A stretch of 64,000 nt of DNA from an uncultured Candidatus Nemicrothrix sp. Its GTDB lineage: Bacteria; Actinomycetota; Acidimicrobiia; Acidimicrobiales; Aldehydirespiratoraceae. The stretch is from contig CAZDEB010000003.1 in NCBI GenBank assembly GCA_964504305.1, forward strand, positions 212,047-276,046. The letters are read 5' to 3'. Below are positions 47,382 through 62,411 of the stretch, piece after piece; positions within the stretch are counted from its first letter, which is position 1; the number at the start of each line of letters is the position of its first letter. A program made the translations under genes and the position numbers. Under the pieces are notes generated by a model, which was not told the DNA's origin, ran no database searches, and saw only the letters and a list, made by a program, of their open reading frames with translations.

Positions 47382-48092
47382 TCAGCCCATCGAATAGCCA
47401 CCATCTACGGGCAATACGGTACCCGTGATGTAGCCCGCCGCCTCGGACGCCAAGAACTCAATTGCTGCAGCAATTTCGTCGGCTTGGCCCAGCCGCCCGA
47501 TTGGTACCACGCTCAACATTGCCTCTCGTTGGGCTTCGGTGAGGTCCATCAACATGTCGGTCTCGATAGGGCCGGGACAGATCACGTTGGCGGTGATGTT
47601 GCGCGAGGCGAACTCCTTGGCCAGTGACTTGGCCAAGCCGATCAGCCCGGCCTTGGATGCCGCATAGTTGGCTTGTCCGGCCTGTCCACCGAGTCCGACG
47701 ATCGAAGAGATGAATATCATTCGGCCCCAGCGGCCTTTCATCATGGCCTTCGATACTCGTTTGGCGACGCGGAAACCTCCCGTGAGGTTGGCGTCGAGCA
47801 CGTCGACGAAATCGTCATCGCTCATCCGCAGCACGAGACCGTCTTTGGTGATGCCGGCGTTGGATACCAGGACTTCGACCGGTCCGAGCTTTTGTTCGAC
47901 CTCGCTCACCGCAGAATCAACAGAGGCGGTATCGGTGACATCGCAGGTGACAACGAGGATGCCTTCGGCGTTTTCGGCAGAACCGCTCCGTGACGTGACC
48001 GCGACCTGATGGCCGGCGGCCGCGAACCGTTTGGCAGTGGCGAGCCCGATGCCGCGATTGCCGCCCGTTACGAGAACAACGCGGCCGGTCAC
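47382..48092 (-). CDS. fabG: 3-oxoacyl-ACP reductase
   Basis: VTGGNRGIG, NAGITKD, GQANYAASK; GTG start overlapping fabH stop. Confidence 0.93.
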   Translation of the reverse strand: MTGRVVLVTGGNRGIGLATAKRFAAAGHQVAVTSRSGSAENAEGILVVTCDVTDTASVDSAVSEVEQKLGPVEVLVSNAGITKDGLVLRMSDDDFVDVLDANLTGGFRVAKRVSKAMMKGRWGRMIFISSIVGLGGQAGQANYAASKAGLIGLAKSLAKEFASRNITANVICPGPIETDMLMDLTEAQREAMLSVVPIGRLGQADEIAAAIEFLASEAAGYITGTVLPVDGGYSMG

Positions 48093-49009
48093 CAGCGCAC
48101 CACCACGCTGCCCCAAGCCATACCCGCACCGAAGCCGGTCATGAGTACCAGCTTGCCGGGTTCGAGTGCGCCGGCGTCGTTGGCGACGCTCATTGCCAGG
48201 GGGATGCTCGCACCTGATGTGTTGCCGGTGTTTTCGAGCACGTTGTAGGTCTTTTCGATGGGAATACCGATGCGCTGACACATGGCATCGATGATTCGGA
48301 TGTTGGCCTGGTGAGGCAGAACAACATCGATGTCGTCGGGCGATAGCCCCGCCTGTTCGAGAACGGCGTTGACCGAAGAAACAACGGCGCGCACTGCTCG
48401 TTTGAACACCTCTCGACCTTCCATCTTGATGGTGTCGTGCAGGTCGCAGTAGAGGATTGACTGGAGGTCGCCGTTGACCCCGAAATCTGATCCGAGAAGG
48501 TCGCCTTGTTCGTGGCGTTCGAGCACAACCGCGCCCGCCCCGTCGCCGAACAAGATGGCTGTGCCGCGGTCGGTCCAGTCGGTGATTCTGGACATGGCGT
48601 CGGAGCCGATAAGGAGGACTTTGTCGGGACCGCCCGGAGTGAGCATCATTCCGTAGGCGGCGACGTAGCCATAGGGGAATCCGGCGCAAACCACGTTGAT
48701 GTCCAATGCGCCGCAAGTGAGCCCGAGACCACGAGCGACCTGACTCGATGTTGCCGGAAACGTCTGCTCTGGCGTGGTGGTACACAACATCAGCAGGCCA
48801 ATCTCTTCGGGACTCGCACCGGCGGCCCGTAGCGCCTCGCCGCCCGCCTCGATCGCCATTGCCGAGGTGGAGCCGCCGACGTGACGTTGACCTATACCGG
48901 AGCGTTCCCGGATCCATTGATCGCTGGTGTCCATCGACTGGGCGAGGTCGTCGTTGGTGACAACCTTCTCTGGGAGGTGCGAGCCGATTCCGGCTACTCG
49001 AATAGTCAT
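48089..49009 (-). CDS. fabH: Beta-ketoacyl-ACP synthase III
   Basis: NVVCAGF (Cys), FGDGAGA, PHQAN (His), GNTSGAS (Asn). Confidence 0.93.
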   Translation of the reverse strand: MTIRVAGIGSHLPEKVVTNDDLAQSMDTSDQWIRERSGIGQRHVGGSTSAMAIEAGGEALRAAGASPEEIGLLMLCTTTPEQTFPATSSQVARGLGLTCGALDINVVCAGFPYGYVAAYGMMLTPGGPDKVLLIGSDAMSRITDWTDRGTAILFGDGAGAVVLERHEQGDLLGSDFGVNGDLQSILYCDLHDTIKMEGREVFKRAVRAVVSSVNAVLEQAGLSPDDIDVVLPHQANIRIIDAMCQRIGIPIEKTYNVLENTGNTSGASIPLAMSVANDAGALEPGKLVLMTGFGAGMAWGSVVVRW

Positions 49010-50190
49010 CCTTTGGTCCTTAGCCAGGCAATGGGTTGACGGGAGGTAACTCGCTCGCCTTCGAAGGCCAGCACTCCCTTTATTTCGCCCGCGAAAGAGC
49101 TGACCACCTCTAGGGAGCCGACCATGCCTAGCACGTGACCCACACGTATCACGCGCCCGTCCTCGCAGTCGGCACGTGGAGTGAAAATACCTGCGCCCGG
49201 TGAAACGACCATACGTTCGGTGCCAAATAGGTGTTCGCCTTCGAGCGCCGACGATTCGACCTCGGTTGAACTGGCCCCGGAGAGGGCTTCGATCAGCCCG
49301 TCCAAATCGGCCGGAGTCGAGATGCTTCGGCGGCTCGCCGTCTTCACCGCCCGTTTGACCAGGCCGGTAAGAACAGTGCCTGGTCCGAGTTCGATGAAAC
49401 TATTGAACCCTTGGTCGTCGAGTCCGCGAAGGGTTTGACGCCAGCGCACCGGTGACGTGAGCTGTGCCCCAAGTAGCGCCGGCCAGTCGCTGGCCTCGCT
49501 GTGCGCCGTTGCGTCGACGTTGGCGTAAACCGGCTGCTCGGCGTCGCGGAACTCGACCTGGTCGATGGCTTTGCGAAGCCGGTCGCGGGCGGGCGCCATA
49601 AGCGGCGTGTGGAACGCTCCGCCCACCGGGATGCGCATCGCTCGTTTGGCGCCGAGTTCTTTGGCGATCGCGCAGGCTCGGTCGAGATCGTCGGGCGCGC
49701 CGGCAATCACGACCTGTCCGGGGGCGTTGTAATTGGCGATCCAAGCGTCGCCGGCGGCCCGTTGACAGGCAATGTCGACTTGGTCGTCGTCGAGTCCGAG
49801 GATGGCTGCCATGGTGCCGTCTTGTTCGTCGGCCGCTGCTTGCATGGCGTCGCCGCGTTCGTTGACCAAGTTGACCGCGTCGCCAAAGTCGAGCACGCCG
49901 GCTGCAGTTAGCGCAGAGTATTCGCCGAGTGAGTGGCCCGCGTGGGCGGCCGCTTCGGCACCGGTTCGGCTAACGGCATCGAGAACCACCATCGACGTGA
50001 CGAAGGTAGCCATTTGGGCGTTGCGGGTCATGGTGAGCTCGTCGGCATCGGTATCGAGCAGCAGCGCGCCGATATCGCGGTGAGTTGCGTCTGATGCTTC
50101 TTCTACAAGTTCCCAAGACGGATGGTCGACCCAAGCCGACCCCATGCCCGGGGTCTGTGAACCTTGACCCGGGTAGGTGAAGACGATCAT
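49006..50190 (-). CDS. fabD: Malonyl-CoA:ACP transacylase with C-terminal biotinyl/lipoyl-like domain
   Basis: PGQGSQ, GHSLGE, NYNAPGQ, GAFHT, SPVRW, E.GPG; extra about 75-aa C-terminal domain. Confidence 0.9.
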   Translation of the reverse strand: MIVFTYPGQGSQTPGMGSAWVDHPSWELVEEASDATHRDIGALLLDTDADELTMTRNAQMATFVTSMVVLDAVSRTGAEAAAHAGHSLGEYSALTAAGVLDFGDAVNLVNERGDAMQAAADEQDGTMAAILGLDDDQVDIACQRAAGDAWIANYNAPGQVVIAGAPDDLDRACAIAKELGAKRAMRIPVGGAFHTPLMAPARDRLRKAIDQVEFRDAEQPVYANVDATAHSEASDWPALLGAQLTSPVRWRQTLRGLDDQGFNSFIELGPGTVLTGLVKRAVKTASRRSISTPADLDGLIEALSGASSTEVESSALEGEHLFGTERMVVSPGAGIFTPRADCEDGRVIRVGHVLGMVGSLEVVSSFAGEIKGVLAFEGERVTSRQPIAWLRTKG

Positions 50191-50305
50191 TAATCAGTGC
50201 CCTCCAGAAGGCGTTGGTCGAACCTGACAGTCCAACTCCACACATTGTGACTCACCAGCCTGCCTTAGAGTTTCATTACTGGCGAGTAGTGAACAGTGCA
50301 ATGTG

Positions 50306-50449
50306 TCACGTCGTCGACAATGACCGCCGCGGCCAGTCATCTGCGGTGGTGCGGTGGCGACGGATCGAGAACTCTCGCCAGATCGTCACGAGGACCAGAA
50401 TGCCAACTACGCGAATCAATCGCTTCAGAACGTTTGTCCTCATCATCAT
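50306..50449 (-). CDS. Small single-TM protein (45-47 aa), below ORF-track cut-off
   Basis: MMMRTNVLKRLIRVVGILVLVTIWREFSIRRHRTTADDWPRRSLSTT*; TAGCCT hexamer 7 nt upstream of the third ATG (50443). Confidence 0.5.
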   Translation of the reverse strand: MMMRTNVLKRLIRVVGILVLVTIWREFSIRRHRTTADDWPRRSLSTT

Positions 50450-50479
50450 GAGGCTACGCTGCGCCTCGTGACCTCACCT

Positions 50480-50566
50480 GCCCGGGTGGTGGAATTGGCA
50501 GACACGACGGACTCAAAATCCGTTGCCTTCGCAGGCGTGCGGGTTCAAGTCCCGCCCCGGGTACCA
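50480..50566 (+). tRNA. tRNA-Leu(CAA)
   Basis: GCCCGGG acceptor (G1-U72 wobble), D loop TGGCAGAC, anticodon stem ACGGA/TCCGT with loop CTCAAAA, long variable arm, GGTTCAAGTCC T arm, encoded CCA. Confidence 0.96.
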
Positions 50567-51741
50567 ATTGCGATCGCGCTCACGAGGGTGAGCAGCACCA
50601 AGATCCAAGAGATGGTCGAGAGGCGCACCAGCCCGGCCGACACGTCATTGCCTATGTCGGTGGCAACAAACAACAAGATGGTGCCGTAAGAAAGCCGGCC
50701 GCCCAGCGAGTCGAGGCTGAGAAACGTGGCTCGATGTCGCTGTTGTAGCTGTGGCGCGGCGGCGGCGCTGATGAGCACTGGTGCCGCCGAACCTTGAGCC
50801 GACCGAAAGGCGATCACGATGACGACGAGGATGCTCGTTGTCGCCGCCATCGTGGTCACGATGAGCGCGCTGAGCGCCCCCAAGCCGATCAGCGTTGTCC
50901 GCAATCCGAAGGCGCGGCTCATACGAACGCTCGATCGGGCAAAGAATGCCCCGACTACCGAGACAACGGCTACCAGAGCACCGGACAGCAACGGGGTGCG
51001 CCCCAGTTGATCGGGGGTGCGGTGGAGGGCCTCGGTGAGCCACGGTTGTAGCAGAGTGAACGCAACGTGTTCGAGCACGACCATGGCGATGCCGTAGCCG
51101 AAGATCCAGGCGAGGGGAGCGCGTCGTAGATACGACAAGCACTCGCCGACTTGGCGCAACAAACCAGGAGCGGCGCCGACGTGGGGCGGTTCGGTGAAGG
51201 CCATGGCCACAACGAGCTGAGCGATCGCAAGGCCGAGCGACGCCGCGAAAGCGAGGCGAAGGTCGGCGAGTCCCACCGCGCCACCCACCAGTGCCCCGAT
51301 GCCGGCGACCACCAGCCCGCGAGAAGTGATGGTGGCTTGTCGATCTCCGAACTCGTTTGGGCGTTCGAGCGCTTCGAGTGTGTCGAAGTGAAACGTCACA
51401 TCGGTGCCCGACAGCGACGCATAACCAAGGGCGAGGAACGCTTGGCCCGCGGCGACGACGGTGAAGCTGTTGGCCCCCAGGATGAAACAGGTGTGGCACA
51501 CCATCCAGCTTGCGGCGGCGATTCGTAGCGTCGGGACCCGGCCGAGGCGATCGCTCATCCACCCGGATGGCACTTCGAATACGACCACGAACAAGTAATA
51601 GATGCCGGCCAGGCGAATGGCGCCGTCGAGATCGAAGTTGGAGCGAGTGAATAACACGAACACCGCTATCCACGGGTTGGTCCGGACCAACAGTTCGTGC
51701 CACTGAATGAGACGCAGGTTGCGTTCGAGACGTTCGATCAC
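50545..51741 (-). CDS. MFS transporter
   Basis: FEVPSGWMSDRLGR motif A, SGTD, about 12 hydrophobic segments; stop falls inside the tRNA T loop. Confidence 0.85.
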   Translation of the reverse strand: MIERLERNLRLIQWHELLVRTNPWIAVFVLFTRSNFDLDGAIRLAGIYYLFVVVFEVPSGWMSDRLGRVPTLRIAAASWMVCHTCFILGANSFTVVAAGQAFLALGYASLSGTDVTFHFDTLEALERPNEFGDRQATITSRGLVVAGIGALVGGAVGLADLRLAFAASLGLAIAQLVVAMAFTEPPHVGAAPGLLRQVGECLSYLRRAPLAWIFGYGIAMVVLEHVAFTLLQPWLTEALHRTPDQLGRTPLLSGALVAVVSVVGAFFARSSVRMSRAFGLRTTLIGLGALSALIVTTMAATTSILVVIVIAFRSAQGSAAPVLISAAAAPQLQQRHRATFLSLDSLGGRLSYGTILLFVATDIGNDVSAGLVRLSTISWILVLLTLVSAIAIGTRGGT

Positions 51742-51767: not shown

Positions 51768-52397
51768 TCAGATGTTGGGAAGCAGTAGGTCGAAGTCCAT
51801 GCGGAAGTTCAGGGCCGCGTTGCCGGTGCCGTCATCAAGGATTGTCGTGTTGGTCCCGGTAAACCACTGAGTTACCTGTCCCGAGGCCGCGAGGTAGTCG
51901 CCGGTGCCACCGATCACGGCCCTTGTGGCGCTTTGCTCCATCGAGTCCGTCCCCTCGATTCCGGCCGTTACGAGGTTGTTGGTCGGAAAGAGGTCCTCGG
52001 GCACGATTTGACCCAATACGAAGACCTGCCTCGAGGAGACATGAGGTTGGGGTCGGTTGCCGTCCAAGATGAGCCATCCCTGACAGAACCATCGGCCAAT
52101 CGAGCCCTCGTTTGTGGGTACGAATCCGTCGAGCACCGTTCCGGATGGGTAAATCCACCCCTCGACCAGAAACGGCAATCGGAAGTCGGCCCCGCTCGCC
52201 GGATTGCGGGGGACGACGTCGCGCCAGGTGTCGCCAAGGCAAGCAACATCGAACGTGACGCGCTCGCGTTTCCATGCGTCGGCGCGCGAAGCGGCGCCGG
52301 CGACTCCACCGGCAACGCCACCAACCAGGGCTGTTCCGCCGATCGCCGCGCCAGTAAGAACGGTGCGTCGATTTGGTTTTTGAGAATCTGCAGTCAT
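51768..52397 (-). CDS. Tat-signal hypothetical protein, dirigent/allene-oxide-cyclase-like barrel (paralog A)
   Basis: PNRRTVL twin-arginine signal + hydrophobic stretch + AGAAS; RAVIGGTGDYLAASGQV motif. Confidence 0.7.
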   Translation of the reverse strand: MTADSQKPNRRTVLTGAAIGGTALVGGVAGGVAGAASRADAWKRERVTFDVACLGDTWRDVVPRNPASGADFRLPFLVEGWIYPSGTVLDGFVPTNEGSIGRWFCQGWLILDGNRPQPHVSSRQVFVLGQIVPEDLFPTNNLVTAGIEGTDSMEQSATRAVIGGTGDYLAASGQVTQWFTGTNTTILDDGTGNAALNFRMDFDLLLPNI

Positions 52398-52406
52398 TTG
52401 CTGGCC

Positions 52407-55400
52407 TTACTGTTTCGGTGGTTGGTCGGCCGCATCGAAGGGCGCAGGCCATTGATCACACGTCGAGTGGTACTCGGTGTCTCGCGGGCCGAATTGGTGC
52501 CACTCGTCGGCTGTTAGGTTGCGGCCCGCGGTTTGGCACGCGATCTGCGGATAACTCTCTAGATCGAGGTCCCAGAAGACTGCATGTCCGTCCCACACCG
52601 TTGCCAGGTAGTTGGCGTTGGGTGAAGCATTGGCCGATGTGTTGGGGGCGTTGGGATAAGGCGCCCCGATCAGCTGACGGGTTTCGATGTCCCAGATCCG
52701 TCCCTGACCGTCGGCGGCGGTCACAAGATATTGGCCATCGACCGTGAAGTACGGTCCTCTGCTGTAGCCCCCGACCGCGTCGGTGTTGCCAAGAAACGGC
52801 GCGCCGACGGGTTGAAGGGTTTCGGCGTCGCGCAACAGAATTGCTCCGGTGCTGTCGACTGTGGCCAACCATTTGCTGTCGTGGGAGTAACGCAATTGCA
52901 TCACTTTGCCCCCGCCCGCCGACAGCAGGGGTGTCTGAAGCTCCCACGTACCGGTATCCCAGATAACGGCGGCTCCCCCGGATGTGGCTGCGGCCAGCCA
53001 CCGATCGTCAGGGCTGAACACCAATGACCGACCGATGGCGTCGGTCGCGGCCACCGCGTCGAGCAGGTCTAGTTCGGCAATGGGCTGACCCGAGTAGTAG
53101 TCGTACACTGTGATCGTTAGCTGGTCGGCTAGCGAACGGGTTTGGATCGCGAGCATTTCGCCGTTGTGGCTTCTGATGACCTCGAACGCCGCGAGTGCGT
53201 CGATAGATCTATTTCCGAGAGCTTCGTCCATGACGACTACGTGCCCCGCAAAGGAAGAAATCGCCAATAAGTTGTCGTCGTTGAGGAATCCGAATGACGG
53301 CTTGTCCAACTCCGGTAGCGGCAGCCGGCGTGGGGTGGCTCCGCTCAGGTCGTAGATCTGGGGAGGTTTGGAGTCGGCGTTGGAAATCACCGCGAGGTCG
53401 CCGGTGCTGTTGATAGTCACCTCGGCGCTGAGCTCGGTCTCGACAGTTCTCGAGATAGGCGATCTTCCGGCCAAGGAAAGCAGAGCAACACCGGTGCCGC
53501 CGCCGACCGCCAAAATCTCTTGGTCGGGGTCAAGTGATACGACCGCGGTTCCTGGCAATTGCGAGTCGAGAAGGTGCTCTAGGTGCCCGTCTTGGTTAGA
53601 GAACTGCACAACTGTGCCGCCGTCGCGAGCCGTAAAAACGGATCGGTCGTTCACGACAGTTGTGTTGGAGATTACCGAAGGCAGCACCGAGGATTCGAGG
53701 CCGGGGATTAGTATCCGCTCGGTGATCTGCCCGCTCGAGTCGATGAGAAGCGCCTCGAAGCTGGTGCCGACCCACGTTCCTTTTTCGTCCGTACCGGAGA
53801 AGTTGGTGATCGAAGATGCCGCCCTTTGCTCGCCTGACGAGCGCACCAACACTGTGTCGCTGGTCTTGGATCCGCTGTTGGTGTCCCAGATGCGCACTAC
53901 CGCAAGTCCGGCGCTCACCAGCTGCGAACTATCGGGTGAGAAACTCAAGGCCGACACACCAATACTGAACGATTCCGGTTGGTGGGGGAGCCCGTCACTT
54001 GCGCCGACAAGATCGAGTTCCTCGATGGCGCGCTCAGGGTGGGCGACCAGCGACTGTCGATAACTACCGTCCGCATTGAAGAGTCGCACGATGCCCTGGT
54101 GGGTACCGGTCGCGATGGTTCCGTCGGGAGCGGCTGCCAGCGCCGTAACTCTGGAGTCGTGGATAATTGGCTCACCGATGACCGACAGATCGGCGGCATC
54201 AAAACGAACCACGTTTTCGCCGCTGGCGGCTAGGAGAGTGTTGTTCGGACCCTTGATGACGGCGCTGGGAGAACTGAGACTCGCGCTAGCCACCTCTTCG
54301 CCGGTGGCGATGTCAACGATGATGAGACCCGCGGAGTGAGCAACAGCGAGGCGGGACTGATCGAGCCACACCATGTCGGTCACGTCGTAGCCCGACGCGA
54401 CCAAACCGAGGAATCCTTGCGACGCGACGAGCGTGGCTTGGACGGCGCCGAGAGTGGTGGGGCTGGGGTTGCGGTTGTATGCCTCCACGGCAAGCAACAT
54501 CGCGAGCGGCCGGTTTGTCGAGGCGAGACTGGTGGCGTCGGCGGCAAGCCGGCGGGTCTCCGCCGCCGACTGGGCCGCGGCCGCGGCGCGGGCTTCGGTG
54601 CGGGCTCGTCGGGCCTGAACCACCGCGACACCCCCGGCCGCCAACGCCACCACGGCCACCGTGCCGATGGCTTTGGAAAGCCGCCGCAAGCGGCGCGCCA
54701 CTCTTTGTTCTTGTTGCCTCAGTGCGGTGGCGGCGTCCTTGCTGCTGTTGACAAACTCGTGGGTGGGCCCTGTCTCGGGCAGAACATGAGTGTCGGATAA
54801 GTCGGCGGCGGCGGCGAGGCGAGCTCCCCTGAGCAGCAGGCTGGGGTCGCGTCCGAGCCGCGCCCATTCGGCCGCCGCATCACTGATAGCACGACGAGTG
54901 CGAACTTCGTCGCGGCTGGTCTCGATCCACTCTCGCAGCCTCGGCCACTCTCGTAACAAGGCCTCGTGGGCGACCTCCACGGTAGGTTCGCGGGACTCTG
55001 GGTCGCGGTCGAAAGTGAGCAGGCGTGCCTTGCCGAAACGCTCGAGCACCGCACCGATGGAGGCAGGGGGGCCGAGCGACGCGATGGGCGCTCGACGTCT
55101 GGTGTCGGTGGCACCACCGTCGAACGCCACGAGCTCGAGAAAAACGCGCTTGGCGCTATCTCGCCCACCCCGATCGAGTTCGTTGTAGAGACGGTCGGCG
55201 CGGCCCGACAGAGCGCCGGCGAATCCTCCGAGGCGTTCGTAACCCGCCAGCGTCATCGTGTTGGCCGACCGGTTCTGAAAGAGCGTGGTCAGCACAAATT
55301 GCAACTGCGGTAGCGCCAACGGTTCGCTCGACATGTCTCGGCTGATGGCCGCGAGTACGCCCGAGTCGACTGTTACGCCAACCCGGTTGGCTGGGCCGTT

Positions 55401-55706
55401 GATTACTTGCACGATCGCCCGTGCCGAGAGGGGGGTAATCGCTACCTGGTGCTCGACAATAAGGTCGGCGAAATCAGGAGCGTGCAGCGGGCGGTCGTAG
55501 TAGTCGGCCCGCAGGGTCACGATCACTTTGAACCGCGACAGTTCATCGGCGACCGTCGCGCCGATTGCTTGCACGAATTGGTGGGTGGTAGCGGGATCAC
55601 CGAGCGTGTACAACTCTTCGAGTTGGTCGATGACAAGGACCACGTCGCTATTTGGCGGCGAGAGGTCAGAGACGGTCTGGGCGAAGGACCGAGCCGAAGT
55701 AGTCAA
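52407..55706 (-). CDS. C-terminal fragment: STAND NTPase (nSTAND1) Walker B region + hydrophobic helix + WD40 repeats
   Basis: VLVIDQLEELYT, TLRADYY, LPQLQFVLT, GRARLLT-like, EVAHEALLREWPRL, RGARL; repeated FSPD...L.T/S and W-D units; WDLD..SY...AC..AGRNLT..EW tail. Confidence 0.85.
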   Translation of the reverse strand: MTTSARSFAQTVSDLSPPNSDVVLVIDQLEELYTLGDPATTHQFVQAIGATVADELSRFKVIVTLRADYYDRPLHAPDFADLIVEHQVAITPLSARAIVQVINGPANRVGVTVDSGVLAAISRDMSSEPLALPQLQFVLTTLFQNRSANTMTLAGYERLGGFAGALSGRADRLYNELDRGGRDSAKRVFLELVAFDGGATDTRRRAPIASLGPPASIGAVLERFGKARLLTFDRDPESREPTVEVAHEALLREWPRLREWIETSRDEVRTRRAISDAAAEWARLGRDPSLLLRGARLAAAADLSDTHVLPETGPTHEFVNSSKDAATALRQQEQRVARRLRRLSKAIGTVAVVALAAGGVAVVQARRARTEARAAAAAQSAAETRRLAADATSLASTNRPLAMLLAVEAYNRNPSPTTLGAVQATLVASQGFLGLVASGYDVTDMVWLDQSRLAVAHSAGLIIVDIATGEEVASASLSSPSAVIKGPNNTLLAASGENVVRFDAADLSVIGEPIIHDSRVTALAAAPDGTIATGTHQGIVRLFNADGSYRQSLVAHPERAIEELDLVGASDGLPHQPESFSIGVSALSFSPDSSQLVSAGLAVVRIWDTNSGSKTSDTVLVRSSGEQRAASSITNFSGTDEKGTWVGTSFEALLIDSSGQITERILIPGLESSVLPSVISNTTVVNDRSVFTARDGGTVVQFSNQDGHLEHLLDSQLPGTAVVSLDPDQEILAVGGGTGVALLSLAGRSPISRTVETELSAEVTINSTGDLAVISNADSKPPQIYDLSGATPRRLPLPELDKPSFGFLNDDNLLAISSFAGHVVVMDEALGNRSIDALAAFEVIRSHNGEMLAIQTRSLADQLTITVYDYYSGQPIAELDLLDAVAATDAIGRSLVFSPDDRWLAAATSGGAAVIWDTGTWELQTPLLSAGGGKVMQLRYSHDSKWLATVDSTGAILLRDAETLQPVGAPFLGNTDAVGGYSRGPYFTVDGQYLVTAADGQGRIWDIETRQLIGAPYPNAPNTSANASPNANYLATVWDGHAVFWDLDLESYPQIACQTAGRNLTADEWHQFGPRDTEYHSTCDQWPAPFDAADQPPKQ

Positions 55707-55711
55707 GGCGT

Positions 55712-57586
55712 TTAGGGCATCGAACGGAGGATCGATCGGATTCGTTGGAACGCGGCGACCAGCTCGCGGAATGGATCTTCGCCCGGGGTCATGGTGACGA
55801 TGAACGACCCCTGGCCCCGTAGATGAGGGACAACGCCCGCCTTGACGATGCTTGACTTGCCAGAGCCCGACGGTCCGACAACCGCACAGAAATGATTGGC
55901 CGTCAAATGATCCAAAATCTTGGCCGTCAGGTCGCCGCGGCCGAAAAAGTTGTCGACGTCGGACTCGTCGAACGCTTGGAGCCCTTTGTAAGGGTTGGCA
56001 ATCTCTCGGGTGGACTCGGGCGCCACCGGGGGATGTCTGGTCGAGTGGGTCAGCGCCTCCGCAAACGTGATGGCCGACTTGAAGCGGTCATCGGGTCGAG
56101 TGGCCGTGGCGAGAGAAACCGCCTCGTAGACATCCTCGTCACCGGGCGCTATCAGCACCGACAGGTCTGACACGCCTGCTCGGACCGCGGCGTGGCAGGC
56201 CTCGGCCGACAGAGCTCGCGGCTCGATGGCTCGTCCCAGCAACGCTTCGAGCGTGCTAACCCCCAGGGCGTAGATATCCGCGGTTGGCGACGCCGCATTG
56301 AACGCCCACCCTTCTGGTGGGTGATAGAGCATGTCGCGTGGCCGAGCTCTGGGTCGGTAGTCGATGTTGGCTTCGACCGCGGCGAGGCCGAAGTCGCCCA
56401 AGTAGGCATTGTGTTGCAGATCGAACATGATGTTGCTGGGTCGAACATCACGATGCAAGACGCCTCGGCGGTGAGCAGTTGCCAACGCTGAGCTGATCTG
56501 AGCCACCCACCTTGCGACCATCGATGGCTCCTGCGGTGTGCCGTCAAGACGATCATCAAGGGTTCCGCCGGCCAGGAAGCGCATTACCAGGTAAGCCCCG
56601 TCAGGGTCTCGCCAAAAATCGTATAGGGGTACGATGTTTGGATGTTCGAGTCGCCCAATGATGTGGGCTTCGGCTTCGAAGTGGCGAATGAATTCGGGAC
56701 GGTCGGCGACTTCTTTGCGGATCACCTTGATGGCGACCGGCCGTCCAAGGCCGGGTTGGACCGAACGGTGCACCACTCCAAAGGCCCCGGCTCCGATCTC
56801 TTCGTGGAGCTCGTAGCCGCGTAACTGCTGCTTGGTCGCATGATAGGCGAGGCTCGGATCGCGACGAGCAATTCGCGTGTCGAGATCCCTCAGAGCGTCA
56901 GAGGGATCAAGTCCGGTTTCCTCGCCGAGAAGGCGCCGGAAATCTTGGTAGGCGCGGAGTGCCTCGACCTGGGCCCCGCACCGGTACAGCGCCAGCATGG
57001 TGAGACGAACCGGTTCCTCGCGCAGAGGTTCGCGTGCGACCAAACTGGCCAGGTCCGAAAGAACCGACCGATGGTCACCAAGCTCCATCCGTGCCCCCAC
57101 CGCGGCTTCCATCGTGAGTGACAGCCGCTCTTCGAGCCGATGGGCTTCGGCATCAAAGGGCCGGTCGAGGGCGAGGACGCCAAAGGCGGGCCCGCTCCAC
57201 AAGGCGATGGCCCGCTCGAGCATCGAGCTCTGTTCGGTAACCGCGGCTGGTCCGGCGATAGCGCTCTGCAACAGCTCCTCGAATTGCATGGCGTCGACTT
57301 GGACCTCCCCAAGGTTGAGTCGATAAGCGTTGTCCCCGGTCTCGATGGAGGAGTCACCCAGAACTCGCCTCAATCGGGCGACGTAGGTTCGCAGCGTGTC
57401 GGATGGTGAGGCCGGCGAAGTGGTCGGGTCGGGCCAGACCGCCTCAGAAAGGGCATCAAGGCCGACCCAGCGGCCCGGGTGGGTTGCCAGTGCGGCGAGG
57501 GCGCGACGCTGGTTGGGTCCACCCACCTTGATCGGGTTGCCACGGTCGTCGATAGCCCCGACCTCGCCTAGCACCGCGATTCGCAC
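55712..57586 (-). CDS. N-terminal fragment: SARP winged helix + BTAD + Ser/Thr kinase + STAND Walker A
   Basis: I.VLG.V, GG..QRR.LA.L, DA.QFE, EPLREE...MLALYRCG.Q.EAL..Y (BTAD); IGAGAFG, VAIK, HRDVRPSN, DFG; NPYKGL..F.E.D...FFGR, GPSGSGKSS. GTG start after GGGAGG. Confidence 0.87.
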   Translation of the reverse strand: MRIAVLGEVGAIDDRGNPIKVGGPNQRRALAALATHPGRWVGLDALSEAVWPDPTTSPASPSDTLRTYVARLRRVLGDSSIETGDNAYRLNLGEVQVDAMQFEELLQSAIAGPAAVTEQSSMLERAIALWSGPAFGVLALDRPFDAEAHRLEERLSLTMEAAVGARMELGDHRSVLSDLASLVAREPLREEPVRLTMLALYRCGAQVEALRAYQDFRRLLGEETGLDPSDALRDLDTRIARRDPSLAYHATKQQLRGYELHEEIGAGAFGVVHRSVQPGLGRPVAIKVIRKEVADRPEFIRHFEAEAHIIGRLEHPNIVPLYDFWRDPDGAYLVMRFLAGGTLDDRLDGTPQEPSMVARWVAQISSALATAHRRGVLHRDVRPSNIMFDLQHNAYLGDFGLAAVEANIDYRPRARPRDMLYHPPEGWAFNAASPTADIYALGVSTLEALLGRAIEPRALSAEACHAAVRAGVSDLSVLIAPGDEDVYEAVSLATATRPDDRFKSAITFAEALTHSTRHPPVAPESTREIANPYKGLQAFDESDVDNFFGRGDLTAKILDHLTANHFCAVVGPSGSGKSSIVKAGVVPHLRGQGSFIVTMTPGEDPFRELVAAFQRIRSILRSMP

Positions 57587-57631
57587 TTCCACCCTCCCGC
57601 TCGTGGGATATAGCCGCATTGCTAGTCGAGC

Positions 57632-57653
57632 GACCTTTCAAGGACCTGTCAAC
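57632..57653. promoter_or_regulatory. 11-nt-period direct repeat (SARP/winged-helix site candidate)
   Basis: GACCTTTCAAG GACCTGTCAAC in tandem; related GGCCTTTCA at 57674. Confidence 0.5.
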
Positions 57654-57827
57654 CGGAGTTGCGCCATATGTCGGGCCTTTCAGCGCTATCGCGCCCGCTC
57701 GTGCCTTGTCACGAACCGTCGTGACAGCCAGCTGTTAGGTCGTGACGCGAGGGTGCCATTCGGGAGTCGACCGACTTTCGGATGGCATTCCAACCGGAAA
57801 ATATTCAACAGACAGGAGCGGGTTGAG

Positions 57828-58475
57828 ATGAGTGAATACGAAGCAATTAACGAGAGTCGACGCCGGGTGCTACGCAGTGCCGGACTGGTGGCTGGTGGGG
57901 CCGCCGTTGCGACGGTGTTGCCGGCCGCCGTGGCGGCTGCTTCAGACGACGATGACAATGACGATGCGGTGACACTCGATGTGGCGTGCGACAACGCGAC
58001 GTTTACCCTGGCGGTTCCGGAGCCGAGGGTCACGGAGTTTCCCGTCGGCGAGGGTTTCCCGCCACAGGGCTCGACGTTTTACGTCGAGGGGGCGCTTTTC
58101 CACGGAGGCACGATCCCCATCGGTGGTTCGAACTGGGATTATGCGGGCAATCTCTCTCACGCCATCGGCCACTGGATGTGTTACGGCTGGTTTGTGCACA
58201 CGGCGGCCCGCTTCGACCCCCACATCGTGTCGAACCACAGCTATTTACTGGACCGGATTTCCCAGCAGGAACCGTTCCCTCACAACCAGATGCAGAGCCA
58301 CGGACTAGAGGGGACCTTTGGCGGGGCCGTCGCTCACCGATCGGTGATTGGTGGAACCGGACGATACAACGGCGCGAGCGGCACTGTTCGCCAGACCGTT
58401 ATTGGTACGAACTCCACCCGCGACGACTTCGACTTCGAGGGGCTCAATTTCCGTTTCGTCTTCGAAGACTCGTGA
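57828..58475 (+). CDS. Tat-signal hypothetical protein, dirigent/allene-oxide-cyclase-like barrel (paralog B)
   Basis: CAGGAG RBS, ATG 57828; ESRRRVL twin-arginine signal + VAAAS; RSVIGGTGRYNGASGTV motif; shares motifs with 51768..52397. Confidence 0.72.
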   Translation: MSEYEAINESRRRVLRSAGLVAGGAAVATVLPAAVAAASDDDDNDDAVTLDVACDNATFTLAVPEPRVTEFPVGEGFPPQGSTFYVEGALFHGGTIPIGGSNWDYAGNLSHAIGHWMCYGWFVHTAARFDPHIVSNHSYLLDRISQQEPFPHNQMQSHGLEGTFGGAVAHRSVIGGTGRYNGASGTVRQTVIGTNSTRDDFDFEGLNFRFVFEDS

Positions 58476-58924: not shown

Positions 58925-59359
58925 ATGGCGAATCAAGTTATTTCTGCCGAACGGATGATGGACCATGATTCGTCAGCAATCTTCGATGTGTTGGCGAGTC
59001 CCGCCGGGCACTTGAAGATGGACGGGTCTGGCACCGTAAGGGGCGTAGTTCGGGGCCCGGATCGGCTTTCGCTCGACGCCAAGTTTGTTATGAGGATGAG
59101 TCTCGGTGTGCCGTATCTCATGACCAGCAGAGTCAAAGAGTTCAAGGAAAATCGTCTCATTGCGTGGGCCCACTTCAGTGGTCATCGCTGGCGGTACGAA
59201 CTAGAGCCGGTCGACGATGGCACAAGGGTTACCGAGTCCTTCGACTGGTCGACGGCGCGGTCCCCCCGCCTGATCGAGCTCTTGGGTTACCCCGAGCGTC
59301 ACAAAGCCAACCTCATTGCGACGCTCGAACGGTTAGATGCCGTTGTCGCGGCGGCTTAG
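58925..59359 (+). CDS. SRPBCC (START-like) family protein
   Basis: IFDVLA.P..H..MDGSGTV, RLIAW, H.WRYELEP, T.VTESFDW; GGAG RBS. Confidence 0.85.
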   Translation: MANQVISAERMMDHDSSAIFDVLASPAGHLKMDGSGTVRGVVRGPDRLSLDAKFVMRMSLGVPYLMTSRVKEFKENRLIAWAHFSGHRWRYELEPVDDGTRVTESFDWSTARSPRLIELLGYPERHKANLIATLERLDAVVAAA

Positions 59360-59370
59360 GCGCCACGGTC

Positions 59371-60846
59371 ATGCAGCAGCTCTCTGGTCTGGACACAACG
59401 TTTCTCAATATCGAAACGTCGACGACTTACGGACATGTCAGCGGCCTTGCCGTGTTCGATCCCCCCGAACAGCCCGGCGCCGAGACTTTCGCACAGCTCC
59501 GAGATTTGATCGCCGAACGTATTCACTTGCTGCCGCCGTATCGGCGGCGACTGGTCGAAGTGCCGTTTGGGCTGGACCAGCCGTACTGGATCGAAGATCC
59601 CGACTTTGATCTCGACTTCCACCTACGCCACATTGGTCTGCCCCCAGACGGCACACCTCATCAACTTGCCGAGCAAGTAGAGCGCATCGTGGCTCGACCG
59701 CTCGACCGTACTCGGCCCCTGTGGGAGCTCTATGTGATCGAAGGCCTCGAGGGTGGCCGTATTGCACAGCTCACCAAGATTCACCACTGCGCGATCGACG
59801 GGGTATCCGGCGCCGAGATGTTGGCCAACTTGCTCGACCTGGAGGCCACGCCCCGAGTTGTCGAACCCCCGGCGAAACCGTGGCGGCCCGACGCCGAGCC
59901 GTCCGAGCTCGAGATGCTCGGTCGGGGGCTGGCATCAATCGCGTTCAAACCGGCCAAGGGAATTCGTCTGATGCGCGACAGCCTGCGCAACCTTCCCGCG
60001 GTCGCAAAGTCGGTGGGCGTCGAATTGCCGGAGTTTGATCGGATCCGCCACGGGGACTTCGATTCGTCGATGTTGTCGGTGGCCCCCACAATGCCCCCGC
60101 GCGTCTCGTTCAACGCCCGCATCGGGCCGCATCGGCGATTTGCGTTTGAGTCGATAAGGCTTCAGGCCTTCAAGGAGATAAAGACGGCCTTTGGCGTCAC
60201 CCTCAACGATGTGGTGATGACCGTTTGTGCCGAGGCTTTGCGGCGGTATCTGGTCGAACGTGACGAACTGCCCGACGCGTCGCTTGTGGCGATGGTTCCC
60301 GTTTCGGTGCGCACCGAAGACCAAGCCGGCGAAGGTGGCAACCAAGTAGCGAGCATGACCGCATCGCTTCACACCGACATCGAGGACATCGCCGAACGTT
60401 TGGGCGCAGTTCACGACTCGATGCAGATCGCCAAGCAATCCCACAAGGCGCTACCGGCGACTCTTCTTCAGGACTTCGCCCAGTTCTCGCCCCCCGCAGT
60501 TGCCGCCCGAGCGGCTCGCACCATAGCCAGAGCCTCGGCCCGAGCCTGGGTCGATCTGCCCTACAACGTGGTGATCTCCAACGTGCCTGGCCCTCAAATC
60601 CCGCTTTATGCGGTCGGTTCCAAGCTTTTGGCCAACTATCCGGTGTCGACGATCCACGACGGGGTTGGCCTCAACATGACTGTGCAGTCCTACAACGGTT
60701 CGCTCGACTTCGGACTCGTGGGCTGCCGCGACCTTGTGCCCGATATCTGGGACATTATGGACCATCTAAAGGATGCGGTCGACGAACTTCATTCGCTTGT
60801 TGACGAAACCGATTCGAACCCTAGAAACGAAAGCGATCCGGCATGA
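59371..60846 (+). CDS. Wax ester synthase/diacylglycerol acyltransferase
   Basis: MQQLSGLD..FL..E, YWIEDP.FDLD.H, PLDRTRPLWE, KIHHCAIDG catalytic motif, TLNDVV, SNVPGP. Confidence 0.93.
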   Translation: MQQLSGLDTTFLNIETSTTYGHVSGLAVFDPPEQPGAETFAQLRDLIAERIHLLPPYRRRLVEVPFGLDQPYWIEDPDFDLDFHLRHIGLPPDGTPHQLAEQVERIVARPLDRTRPLWELYVIEGLEGGRIAQLTKIHHCAIDGVSGAEMLANLLDLEATPRVVEPPAKPWRPDAEPSELEMLGRGLASIAFKPAKGIRLMRDSLRNLPAVAKSVGVELPEFDRIRHGDFDSSMLSVAPTMPPRVSFNARIGPHRRFAFESIRLQAFKEIKTAFGVTLNDVVMTVCAEALRRYLVERDELPDASLVAMVPVSVRTEDQAGEGGNQVASMTASLHTDIEDIAERLGAVHDSMQIAKQSHKALPATLLQDFAQFSPPAVAARAARTIARASARAWVDLPYNVVISNVPGPQIPLYAVGSKLLANYPVSTIHDGVGLNMTVQSYNGSLDFGLVGCRDLVPDIWDIMDHLKDAVDELHSLVDETDSNPRNESDPA

Positions 60847-62411
60847 AAGAGCTTGTTTACCACCGCGGTCTGTTGCCGGCGCTCGACGAGTACGCCGACA
60901 AGGTCGGGTTCATCGACGGCGAATATAGGGGCACCTTCGCCGAGCATGGGGATCGAGTTTTCCGGCTCTGCACGGCGATGCGAGAGAAGTTGGGCATCAC
61001 TTCGGACGCTCGCTTCGCGGTGATGGCTACCAACAGCCACCAATACCTCGAACTTTGGCATGCCGCGTTCCTGGGCGCGGGTGTGATGAATCCGCTCAAT
61101 CTTCGCCTCGCTGGTCCCGAGCTCGATTACATCGTGCGCGATTCGGGTACCGAAGTAGTTTTCGTCGACGCATTTTTTGCTCAGCATTTTGCCAATGCCA
61201 TGGCCGCGAGTCCCGACCCGAGTCCGATTCGCCACGTTGTGTTGATTGGTGATGCCGACGTCCCTCACGACATCAAGTACGAGGACCTCATATCGGGGGT
61301 CGCGGCCGACGTTCCCGACGAACCATACGAAGACGACCCGGTCGTGCTGATGTATACCGGCGGCACAACCGGACTTCCCAAAGGGGTGGTGCTCACCCAT
61401 CGCGCCCAGATGCTCAACTTGTATCACGTGGCGATGGTCGTGCCGTTTGACTCCGAGAACACCTACTTGCACCAGACTCCGATGTTTCACGCCGCATCGA
61501 TGGGCGGAATCCTCGGCACGCCCGCGACCGGAGGCGTCACTGTCTTCATGCCGCTGTTTGACCCGGGCGGGGCAATGGCGCTGATCGAAGAGCACTCGGT
61601 AACCCAAACAATGATGGTCCCCACGATGGTGGGCATGGTCTTGAACCATCCCGACTACCGTCCGCAACGACTCGACTCGTTGACCCAACTCACCTACGGC
61701 GCTTCGCCCATGCCGGCCGCGCTTCTCGACAAGGTGCTGACCACCTACCCAGACCTCAACGTCACCCAGGGATACGGGATGACCGAGTGCTGCGCGTTGC
61801 TCACTTGGCTTGATGCCGACGAACATCGCAAGGGCGGACCACGGGTCCGGTCCGCGGGCAAACCGGTGCTCGGCATCAGTTTGAGCATTCGGGACGAGGA
61901 CGGCAACGAGGTTCCCCGCGGCGAAACCGGCGAGGTTTGTGCGCGGGCCGGCAACTTCATGACGGAGTATTGGAACAAGCCCGAGGCCACCGCCGAAGCC
62001 TTCGCCGGTGGCTGGTATCACACCGGCGACGCCGGTTATCTCGACGACGAGGGCTTTTTGTTTCTGGTCGATCGGGTGAAGGACATGATCGTTACGGGCG
62101 GCGAGAACGTGTACTCGGCCGAGGTCGAGTCGGCGATCTCGCGTCACGACGCAGTCGAGCAGGTGGCTGTCATCGGCATTCCCCACGACACGTGGGGCGA
62201 ACAGGTCCACGCGGTGGTCGTTTGTCGAGCCGGTGTCACCGTCGAGGCCGACGAGTTGCAGGCTTTTGCCAAAGAGCAGATTGCCGGCTACAAGGTGCCA
62301 AAGTCGATCGAGTTCAGAGAAGATCCACTGCCACTGTCCGGGGCCATGAAGGTGCTCAAGCGCGAACTTCGGGCACCGTACTGGGGCGACCAGGACAGGT
62401 CCGTCAACTAA
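60843..62411 (+). CDS. Long-chain-fatty-acid--CoA ligase
   Basis: YTGGTTGLPKGV, PMFHAA, QGYGMTE, HTGDAG, DRVKDMIVTGGENVYS.EVE, SGAMKVLK. Confidence 0.92.
   Translation: MKELVYHRGLLPALDEYADKVGFIDGEYRGTFAEHGDRVFRLCTAMREKLGITSDARFAVMATNSHQYLELWHAAFLGAGVMNPLNLRLAGPELDYIVRDSGTEVVFVDAFFAQHFANAMAASPDPSPIRHVVLIGDADVPHDIKYEDLISGVAADVPDEPYEDDPVVLMYTGGTTGLPKGVVLTHRAQMLNLYHVAMVVPFDSENTYLHQTPMFHAASMGGILGTPATGGVTVFMPLFDPGGAMALIEEHSVTQTMMVPTMVGMVLNHPDYRPQRLDSLTQLTYGASPMPAALLDKVLTTYPDLNVTQGYGMTECCALLTWLDADEHRKGGPRVRSAGKPVLGISLSIRDEDGNEVPRGETGEVCARAGNFMTEYWNKPEATAEAFAGGWYHTGDAGYLDDEGFLFLVDRVKDMIVTGGENVYSAEVESAISRHDAVEQVAVIGIPHDTWGEQVHAVVVCRAGVTVEADELQAFAKEQIAGYKVPKSIEFREDPLPLSGAMKVLKRELRAPYWGDQDRSVN

Follow-up and report, generated by a model that had tools for sequence, protein, structure and literature searches.

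This analysis concerns a cluster of three genes in a 64,000-nucleotide stretch of DNA, hereafter called the window, from an uncultured Candidatus Nemicrothrix sp. (contig CAZDEB010000003.1, positions 212,047 to 276,046). In this cluster, the gene for a very large putative transcription regulator is flanked by genes for two small, predicted exported proteins, which we call A and B. A first-pass annotation, made from the sequence alone, proposed that the three genes form a signalling circuit in which a regulator composed of SARP, kinase, STAND and WD40 modules has two paralogous, dirigent-like barrel proteins as its outputs or co-sensors. Our results partly support this proposal. Its observations are largely right, as is its interpretation of the regulator and A as a module and of the fold, export and membrane topology of the products. 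Its interpretation of B and of the promoter in the window is wrong or unproven.

Barrel proteins and regulator at the locus

Both flanking open reading frames are intact, and their products are homologous across 173 amino acids (35% identity; BLASTP E value 4e-25). The motifs that the first-pass annotation had listed as common to the pair are indeed all present in A and in B, specifically VT(F/L)DVAC, F.VEG, IG.W.C.GW, PH..S, G.EGT, R.VIGGTG.Y..ASG, GTN.T and NFR..F.

The twin-arginine (Tat-type) signals claimed for both proteins are also found. That of A reads NRRTVLT, followed by a Gly/Ala/Val-rich hydrophobic region (h-region) and then ADA directly before W, whereas that of B begins with SRRRVLR and ends in AAAS. 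Both sequences carry the features expected of Tat substrates, namely the (S/T)RRx(F/V)L motif, a mildly hydrophobic h-region and an AxA-type site, and in an alignment of 33 members of the barrel family the arginine pair is at least 90% conserved. In addition, the N-terminal part of the family profile gives weak matches to the Tat signals of NirK, AioB, a Rieske protein and EfeB, and B matches the TIGR02811 'TAT target' model (E value 2e-5, under the model's cut-off). Distant clades of the family carry Sec-type rather than Tat-type signals, and thus export appears to be a constant feature of the family for which Tat is no family-wide requirement.

The AlphaFold2 model of A has eight strands and a predicted local distance difference test (pLDDT) value of 85. 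When this model is compared by Foldseek with the structures in the PDB, it matches dirigent proteins, the pyocyanin demethylase PodA and allene oxide cyclases (AOC) with E values of 7.5e-6 to about 1e-3 and a probability of 1.0. The top entries are 6ooc, 4rev, 5k21, 5lal, 7ywe and 4h69 (E values from 7.5e-6), the TM-scores of A against these barrels are 0.54-0.74 when normalised to the target, and the matches also include the Diels-Alderases AbyU, AbmU, Tsn15 and PloI4. By sequence profile, the Pfam family PF03018 (Dirigent) scores 16.4 bits for A, 15.4 bits for B and 23.1 bits for another family member, P0154, all of which are below the gathering cut-off of 29.1 bits, and a profile search of the PDB with the barrel family reaches dirigent proteins at an E value of 0.42 and PodA at 0.6. 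The region that gives rise to the weak Pfam matches is the EGT...R.VIGGTG.Y..A.G motif. Together, these models and comparisons support the assignment of the flanking proteins to a single exported family with a dirigent/AOC-type barrel fold, as the first-pass annotation had suspected.

This family is small: when clustered at 50% identity, 1.84 billion representatives contain 628 clusters of it, and 69 of these are found at E <= 1e-30. It is also unnamed, and neither NCBIfam nor Pfam has a model for it. The first-pass annotation had described the barrels as two-Cys proteins. C53 is conserved in actinobacterial clades only (21 of 48 sequences) and is replaced by Glu in many others, and C105 is conserved in 37 of the 48; a two-Cys or disulfide signature is therefore rejected as a family-defining feature.

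The regulator gene comprises about 1,730 codons in all, and the Pfam matches confirm every domain that had been named for it. Total length and domains thus stand, but the gene is not one open reading frame: a frameshift divides it into two parts, as the first-pass annotation had implied when it spoke of a frame-repaired regulator. The N-terminal frame carries a Trans_reg_C winged helix-turn-helix at amino acids 35-93 (31.6 bits; E value 2e-7) and a BTAD domain at 108-250 (111.2 bits; 7e-32), both over their cut-offs, then a Hanks kinase at 269-481 (Pkinase; 132 bits; 3e-38) and the start of nSTAND1 at 543-624 (1e-26). The order of an OmpR-type winged helix followed by BTAD identifies the protein as a SARP. 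The nSTAND1 family (PF20703) scores 94.4 bits for profile positions 1-88 and 256.9 bits (E value 6e-76) for positions 97-378, which exceeds its Pfam cut-off, and both Walker A (GPSGSGKSS) and Walker B (VLVIDQLEE) are present. WD40 or other beta-propeller families match residues 463-640 and 866-1071 of the translated C-terminal stretch, and the WD40 stretch of about 700 amino acids would be enough for two propellers. The kinase retains GAGAFG, VAIK, EAEA (with the alphaC Glu) and DFG, and its HRDVRPSN motif has Arg in place of Lys; these motifs are canonical in most orthologues. Comparison with the starts of orthologues suggests that the true start of the regulator may be a GTG at 57586, which is preceded by GGGAGG.

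Table 1. Features of the regulator-barrel locus, in window coordinates.
Feature	Coordinates	Strand	Description
Barrel protein A, 209 amino acids	51768..52397	-	Tat-type signal and predicted 8-stranded dirigent/AOC/PodA-like barrel; regulator-linked clade
Spacer between regulator and A, 9 nucleotides	52398..52406	-	From the regulator stop (TAA, 52407-52409) to the ATG of A
Regulator, C-terminal frame, 1099 amino acids	52407..55741 (listed open reading frame 52407-55706)	-	nSTAND1 from Walker B, helix, WD40
Predicted extracytoplasmic part	52410..54614	-	Ala/Glu/Arg-rich helix, then about 700 amino acids of WD40 repeats
Single membrane helix (predicted)	54615..54671	-	AIGTVAVVALAAGGVAVVQ; between nSTAND1 and WD40, RRLRRLSK directly before
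Frameshift site	55731..55741	-	Junction from alignment with intact orthologues
Regulator, N-terminal frame, 635 amino acids	55712..57619	-	Trans_reg_C, BTAD, Pkinase, nSTAND1 start and Walker A
Divergent intergenic region, 208 nucleotides	57620..57827	.	Between regulator and B
Barrel protein B, 215 amino acids	57828..58475	+	Tat-signal paralogue of A, different clade

Pairing of regulator and barrel genes

As the first-pass annotation had noted, A follows the regulator by 9 nucleotides and B is divergent from it across 208 nucleotides. The conservation of these two arrangements was assessed in 43 distinct barrel loci, which were obtained by scans of genomes and metagenomes and by contig look-ups; the 33-sequence alignment had no conserved stretch, and a 14-sequence subset was used for the search. 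In the clade of A, the barrel gene is immediately preceded by a BTAD-kinase-nSTAND1-WD40 regulator gene of the same orientation in each of the 13 other loci for which upstream sequence is available (L001-L009, L041, L044, L046 and L054), and a neighbour-joining tree places the regulator-linked barrels in one clade. The stop and start codons of the two genes overlap by 4 nucleotides in L046 and L054, and other orthologues have gaps of 52-64 nucleotides. The short spacer in the window implies that the regulator and A would be co-transcribed and translationally coupled. Genes beyond the pair are not conserved among the loci read. Thus, the regulator and its downstream barrel appear to constitute a conserved, dedicated two-gene operon of Acidimicrobiia-type Actinomycetota. 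The regulator family is large (more than 3,000 matches at E <= 1e-30), and the conserved unit would represent one subclade of it.

Activity of the kinase does not seem to be required for this pairing. In L041, whose regulator is the closest to the clade of the window, the kinase (L041:5569-6260) has lost GxGxxG and its C-lobe, and shows Tyr for the Lys of VAIK, HGN for HRD and RFG for DFG. The downstream barrel gene is retained regardless, which argues that kinase catalysis is dispensable for the association of regulator and barrel, and not essential to the module. In two other loci (L002 and L004) the regulator gene has several frame breaks, and the barrel gene of L004 also has one; these are possibly read errors and were left uninterpreted.

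Two candidate fusions between barrel and regulator parts were set aside. P0090 (502 amino acids), which joins WD40 repeats to a barrel and might have served as a Rosetta-stone fusion, is a read-through artefact: its junction is Arg-rich, out-of-frame sequence, and the barrel keeps its own start and signal. P0035, a BTAD fragment joined to a barrel, looks chimeric and was not used.

In one subclade, the sequence upstream of the regulator gene follows the SARP rule, as seen in five orthologous operons (L001, L002, L003, L004 and L046). Here, (C/T)TGCAGAC(G/C) occurs twice with a spacing of exactly 11 nucleotides, followed by 8 nucleotides and a TANNNT hexamer (TATGTT, TACGGT, TACAGT, TACGGT or TACTGT). 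About 50 nucleotides past the hexamer lie a G-rich ribosome-binding site and the start of the regulator, MEVRVLGPLEV. The box is an invariant island in otherwise diverged upstream DNA, and none of these five loci contains a second tandem box. Direct repeats with 11-nucleotide spacing that end 8 nucleotides before the -10 element are the SARP rule described for AfsR and afsS (PMC11301090). The presence of such a textbook box at the operon's own promoter implies that the regulator-barrel operon would be positively autoregulated through the TGCAGACG box. The TGCAGAC box is absent from the window, L041 and L054. The direct-repeat control proposed in the first-pass annotation is therefore matched by the sequence of these five operons but not by that of the spacer in the window.

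The barrel family as a whole is not exclusive to SARP-STAND regulators. A genomic association with such regulators, which the first-pass annotation had suggested as a check, is found for the clade of A, but other barrel clades occur in other contexts. Several distant barrel genes are divergent to genes for other winged helix-turn-helix regulators: Trans_reg_C proteins with a transmembrane segment and a PD40 propeller (L023-L025), a Trans_reg_C-TPR protein (L020), a Trans_reg_C protein (L026) and a small SARP (L011). The link between an exported barrel and membrane-type OmpR-family regulators that bear extracytoplasmic repeats therefore seems to have arisen more than once.

Further contexts were seen among the more distant relatives. 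Two marine or freshwater contigs (L013:6191-10726 and L014:447-9583) each carry three tandem copies of a distant barrel with clear Tat motifs directly behind TonB-dependent receptor/plug genes, an arrangement that suggests that these barrels bind or process a small molecule after its import. On two unrelated contigs (L027:874-2852 and L030:9884-11988), the gene for a barrel with a Sec-type signal is immediately followed by that for a BBE/FAD_binding_4 oxidase, a pairing that recalls the partnership of dirigent proteins and oxidases in plants. Elsewhere, the barrel adjoins an Rv2258c-like winged helix-turn-helix methyltransferase (L010:3-1441, L012:5005-6796 and L017:3-1435), and in L012 a gene for a BTAD-SRPBCC (polyketide-cyclase-like) protein is located two genes upstream.

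The copy in the window

Alignment with orthologues places the frame break of the window regulator between Walker A and Walker B. The N-terminal frame is homologous to its orthologues up to ELVAAFQRI and ends at a TAA (55712-55714), and the C-terminal frame is homologous from DPPFDALNAL onward, remaining open and homologous up to about position 55733. Positions 88 and 97 of the nSTAND1 profile bracket the change of frame, which shifts the downstream part by -1 with respect to the upstream part and is equivalent to a deletion of one nucleotide. The junction (atccgatcgat) contains neither an X XXY YYZ slippery heptamer nor a homopolymer, and a programmed frameshift was rejected on these grounds in favour of a single-nucleotide deletion. 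An assembly error was rejected as well, given that the identical split gene is called in the 4 contigs shown, of 10 read, from independent JGI, ENA and Logan assemblies that carry B. The DNA of those contigs is 99.9-99.99% identical to the window, with zero differences within 51768-58475. The recurrence of the split in independent assemblies of near-identical DNA means that the frameshift is real and fixed in this population.

Intact orthologues have 1715, 1773 and 1755 amino acids, whereas the NTPase of the window regulator is not one intact polypeptide, and its function should be lost when Walker A is separated from Walker B. Apart from the frameshift, no stop codon interrupts either half over 5.2 kb, which suggests that any loss is recent. 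The regulator in the window is thus most likely a recent pseudogene, and this copy of the system is probably inactive.

The status of B also differs from what had been proposed. In the neighbour-joining tree B belongs to a different clade from A, its nearest relatives P0078 and P0079 (61-62% identity; loci L048 and L049) have no regulator nearby in either case, and no other locus has a second, divergent barrel gene. The idea of a dedicated regulator-barrel module is accordingly upheld for the clade of A but not for B, and two flanking paralogues are not the conserved arrangement. The adjacency of B to the regulator appears to be specific to this lineage, and B may or may not be one of its targets. 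In one of the two loci mentioned (L048:6922-10702), the closest named relative of B is preceded by a gene for an ECF sigma factor and by two genes whose products (232 and 514 amino acids) have no Pfam match. This hints that the clade of B may be under the control of ECF sigma factors rather than SARPs.

The first-pass annotation had reported 11-nucleotide repeats at the promoter between the regulator and B. What is present there is an exact 8-mer, GTCGTGAC, at 57718-57725 and 57739-57746 with a spacing of 21 nucleotides, accompanied by the inverted sequence TGTCACGA at 57707-57714. Across the window, GTCGTGAC has 7 matches where 5.1 are expected, and as a window-wide motif it was rejected for lack of enrichment; by our own estimate, its repetition within the 208-nucleotide spacer is only weakly beyond chance. 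Between these repeats and the start codon of B lies a 16-nucleotide imperfect palindrome (57754-57787; TGCCATTCGGGAGTCG / CGACTTTCGGATGGCA, with a 2-nucleotide loop) that overlaps the distal copy of a 34-nucleotide imperfect direct repeat (57624-57657 and 57765-57798; 71% identity). The regulator-proximal copy of this repeat, TCCGGTTGACAGGTCCTTGAAAGGTCGCTCGACT when read in the orientation of the regulator (TTGACA-17 nucleotides-TCGACT), is conserved at the orthologous site in L041 (L041:4763-4790), even though the proteins there are only about 45% identical. This element may be a promoter (TTGACA-17 nucleotides-TCGAxT) or an operator. A scan of the window spacer for consensus sigma-70 promoters found none, and terminators occur at chance level.

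If the regulator is dead in this genome, then there might be no working system here at all: A and B could be independent exported proteins made from other promoters, and their flanking of the regulator an accident. The frameshift fixed in all assemblies that carry the locus, a junction that lacks a slippery site, the unlinked relatives of B, spacer repeats that are barely beyond chance and the missing consensus promoter are all consistent with this explanation. However, the two open halves of the regulator make its inactivation recent, and the clade of A is linked to regulators everywhere else. We give such an explanation only a slim chance of being correct, and it would in any case concern the copy in the window rather than the module at the level of the family.

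Beyond the cluster, an MFS transporter gene lies 26 nucleotides downstream of A and is followed by FabD-like and FabH-like genes (48089-51741, minus strand), and genes for a WS/DGAT wax-ester synthase and an AMP-binding acyl-CoA synthetase lie beyond B (59164-62411, plus strand). These lipid-metabolism neighbours are not conserved beside the module in other genomes.

Membrane topology and a candidate co-sensor switch

The suggestion that a hydrophobic helix before the WD40 region could place the propeller outside the membrane is strengthened by comparison with homologues. In the window regulator, AIGTVAVVALAAGGVAVVQ has a Kyte-Doolittle mean of 2.05 over 19 residues and is the sole such peak in the protein, and an equivalent helix is found in the four orthologues examined (L041, L046, L001 and L003). 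Among the 120 best homologues of window positions 52410-55706 on the minus strand (P0229-P0348), one helix lies 20-40 amino acids after the NTPase in 114, whatever their N-terminal modules, and only 6 comparable hydrophobic peaks occur elsewhere in 170,290 residues. The N-terminal flank of the helix is the more positive one in all 114 proteins (mean charge +4.05, compared with +0.43 for the C-terminal flank). By the positive-inside rule, the WD40 repeats should therefore be located outside the cell, in the same compartment as the exported barrel.

In Apaf-1-type proteins, the sensor repeats and the NTPase share a compartment, whereas the predicted helix separates nSTAND1 from WD40 in the regulators described here. 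Moreover, the N-terminal modules of these proteins are exchanged (SARP plus kinase, XRE-HTH plus kinase, adenylate cyclase or GerE) on a constant STAND-WD40 chassis. No description of a post-NTPase helix with extracytoplasmic WD40 repeats was found in the literature searched. Tentatively, and with more doubt than conviction, we suggest that more than 100 of the 120 sampled nSTAND1-WD40 proteins are 'transmembrane STAND' receptors, in which WD40 repeats outside the cell drive an NLR-like NTPase through a single helix and not by touching the NTPase themselves. One Acidimicrobiia clade of these receptors would then have recruited a secreted dirigent-fold barrel as a small-molecule co-receptor, with SARP-dependent transcription of its own operon as the output.

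A chassis of this kind might also serve an NLR-like conflict or immunity system, such that the WD40 repeats detect a molecule derived from an invader or competitor, the kinase and SARP modules act as effectors, and the barrel is a secreted effector or decoy. The nSTAND1 domain was defined in predicted counter-invader systems (PMC8195603; PMC7159879), the exchange of N-terminal modules would fit this scheme, and kinases in conflict systems are often inactive, as is seen in L041. Nevertheless, we judge this explanation to be improbable. PADLOC returns only generic kinase-domain matches for the regulator and none for the barrels, the loci read contain no neighbouring defence genes or mobile elements, and the barrel is well conserved rather than diversifying. 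Furthermore, a transcription activator that is associated with an autoregulatory box serves as the output, and the sensor is predicted to lie outside the cell.

With moderate confidence, we hypothesize instead that the regulator and barrel constitute a co-component-like transmembrane transcription switch, in which the barrel is the extracytoplasmic co-sensor of the propeller, the STAND NTPase is the switch and SARP-driven autoregulation is the output. The regulator would be a single-pass protein of about 1,700-1,800 amino acids, with the SARP module, Hanks kinase and nSTAND1 in the cytoplasm, then the helix, and about 700 amino acids of WD40 repeats outside. The barrel, encoded by a gene that overlaps that of the regulator or lies within 64 nucleotides of it, would be exported by the Tat route and meet the propeller outside the membrane, where it would bind or process a small molecule. 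Ligand-dependent contact between barrel and propeller could then be relayed through the helix to the NTPase, whose oligomerisation would allow the SARP module to switch on its own promoter, probably along with further targets. A second output or a scaffold might be provided by the kinase.

Alternatively, the barrel might be the regulated output rather than a sensor. PodA demethylates pyocyanin, and dirigent and AOC proteins steer cyclisations. Similarly, the barrel could act outside the membrane as an enzyme on a small molecule, either hydrophobic or redox-active, which it would modify or detoxify, while the propeller senses the signal alone and the SARP module switches on the operon. We consider this to be the main rival to a co-sensor role, and yet an unlikely one. 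It draws on the structural neighbours of the barrel, which are enzymes or direct reactions (PodA, AOC, pterocarpan synthase and Diels-Alderases), on the BBE-type FAD oxidases (L027 and L030) and methyltransferases (L010, L012 and L017) beside other barrel clades, and on the SARP box ahead of the operon, by which the barrel automatically becomes a target. The existence of same-architecture regulators without a barrel, and the stronger conservation of the barrel relative to the regulator, would be expected as well. However, translational coupling to the 3′ end of a regulator gene of 5 kb would keep the production of an output enzyme as low as that of a regulator, and tight 4-nucleotide overlaps are more typical of stoichiometric partners. 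In addition, a catalytic residue set was not identified among the invariant barrel positions, which are mostly glycines plus R159 and N183.

A number of points count against the co-sensor hypothesis. The role assigned to the barrel is derived from gene order, overlap and a shared compartment, and the topology from hydropathy and charge only. The structural relatives of the barrel found by Foldseek are mostly enzymes, and the contexts of other barrel clades, adjoining BBE oxidases, methyltransferases and TonB-dependent receptors, look metabolic. When the test is reversed, with four regulators that share the architecture but are more distant, only one is accompanied by a barrel (L054), and the other three (L055-L057) have no barrel gene within 5 kb, which indicates that the propeller can work without one. 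When the window is compared with L041, the barrels share 55% identity, the transmembrane-WD40 parts about 35%, and BTAD and STAND about 45%, such that the barrel appears to be the best-conserved piece of the module, a pattern that would also fit an enzyme. Finally, the kinase of L041 is degenerate, all assemblies with the locus show the frameshift in the window regulator, and the geometry of a SARP box is missing from the window spacer, which has 8-mers 21 nucleotides apart and no TANNNT at +8.

We favour the co-sensor reading in part because of its likeness to a known class of bacterial sensors. Co-component systems such as VtrA/VtrC, ToxR/ToxS, PsaE/PsaF and GrvA/FidL consist of a regulator with a winged helix-turn-helix and a transmembrane segment, and a barrel of eight strands that binds a ligand and is encoded by an overlapping gene downstream (Kinch et al., 2022; PMC9214523). 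The module described here shares with them a membrane-tethered transcription factor, in which a single membrane helix joins a cytoplasmic winged helix of the OmpR/CadC type to a domain outside the cytoplasm. It also shares an exported meander beta-barrel of 8 strands, encoded by the adjacent gene downstream, often with an overlap, and in both cases the pair is the conserved unit; binding of a hydrophobic ligand is in our case a prediction. In contrast, the two show no homology of sequence or fold: the barrel here is of the dirigent/AOC type, and neither VtrC nor ToxS is among the 50 best Foldseek matches of A. On the barrel, a Tat signal takes the place of a membrane tether. In addition, a predicted WD40 propeller pair of about 700 amino acids stands where co-component regulators have a small alpha-beta sandwich, BTAD, a Hanks kinase and a STAND NTPase are additional components on the cytoplasmic side, and the host belongs to the Actinomycetota rather than the enteric Proteobacteria. 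The resemblance to VtrA/VtrC is thus one of analogy and not of membership. Our best reading, which we hold with belief and doubt in roughly equal measure, is that a STAND switch here forms the basis of an actinobacterial analogue of co-component sensors of the VtrA/VtrC or ToxR/ToxS type.

Other known proteins resemble parts of this system. AfsR and other large SARPs, in which a SARP module is joined to an NB-ARC STAND domain and TPR repeats, share the OmpR-type winged helix with BTAD, a STAND NTPase, C-terminal repeats and, in the five orthologous operons, tandem direct repeats that terminate 8 nucleotides upstream from the -10 element. Indeed, the NCBIfam AfsR model matches the N-terminal 250 amino acids of the regulator (E value 4e-43), far below its full-length cut-off. 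However, AfsR is a cytosolic protein with NB-ARC and TPR that is phosphorylated in trans by AfsK, whereas the present regulator has nSTAND1, a fused kinase, a membrane helix before WD40 repeats predicted to be outside, and a co-encoded exported partner. Mycobacterial PknD is a kinase-transmembrane-beta-propeller protein, and EmbR is a SARP-type regulator controlled by the receptor kinase PknH. PknD therefore offers the same order of Hanks kinase inside, one helix and beta-propeller outside, and PknH and EmbR the combination of receptor kinase and SARP-type regulator, but these are separate proteins without STAND or a co-encoded barrel. Here, the functions would be combined in one polypeptide, with a kinase that seems dispensable in at least one lineage (L041). 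Similarly, dirigent proteins, AOC and PodA share the 8-stranded barrel, are all exported or extracytoplasmic, and act on small hydrophobic molecules, an activity that for the present barrel is predicted. This family differs in being bacterial, in scoring 15-23 bits against a Pfam threshold of 29.1, and in having no known activity.

The first-pass annotation knew of no description of such a module, and none combining a SARP-STAND-WD40 regulator with an exported barrel was found in the searchable literature. The module therefore appears to be undescribed, as a new variant of known design principles for which co-component systems provide a known analogue. For the window alone the conclusion is more modest: its regulator is frameshifted and probably dead, and B is a neighbour and not a proven part. 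For the family, the TGCAGACG SARP box offers an immediately testable pair of promoter and regulator. If our reading is correct, then the co-component logic of enteric virulence sensors (ToxRS and VtrAC) would extend to the Actinomycetota, where it would be built from entirely different parts. Likewise, the input that drives STAND/NLR-type switches would come from outside the cell and act across a single membrane helix, which conflicts with the usual model in which sensor repeats fold back on the NTPase. The module would also give a first functional context to an unnamed bacterial branch of the dirigent/AOC/PodA barrels that comprises about 630 clusters.

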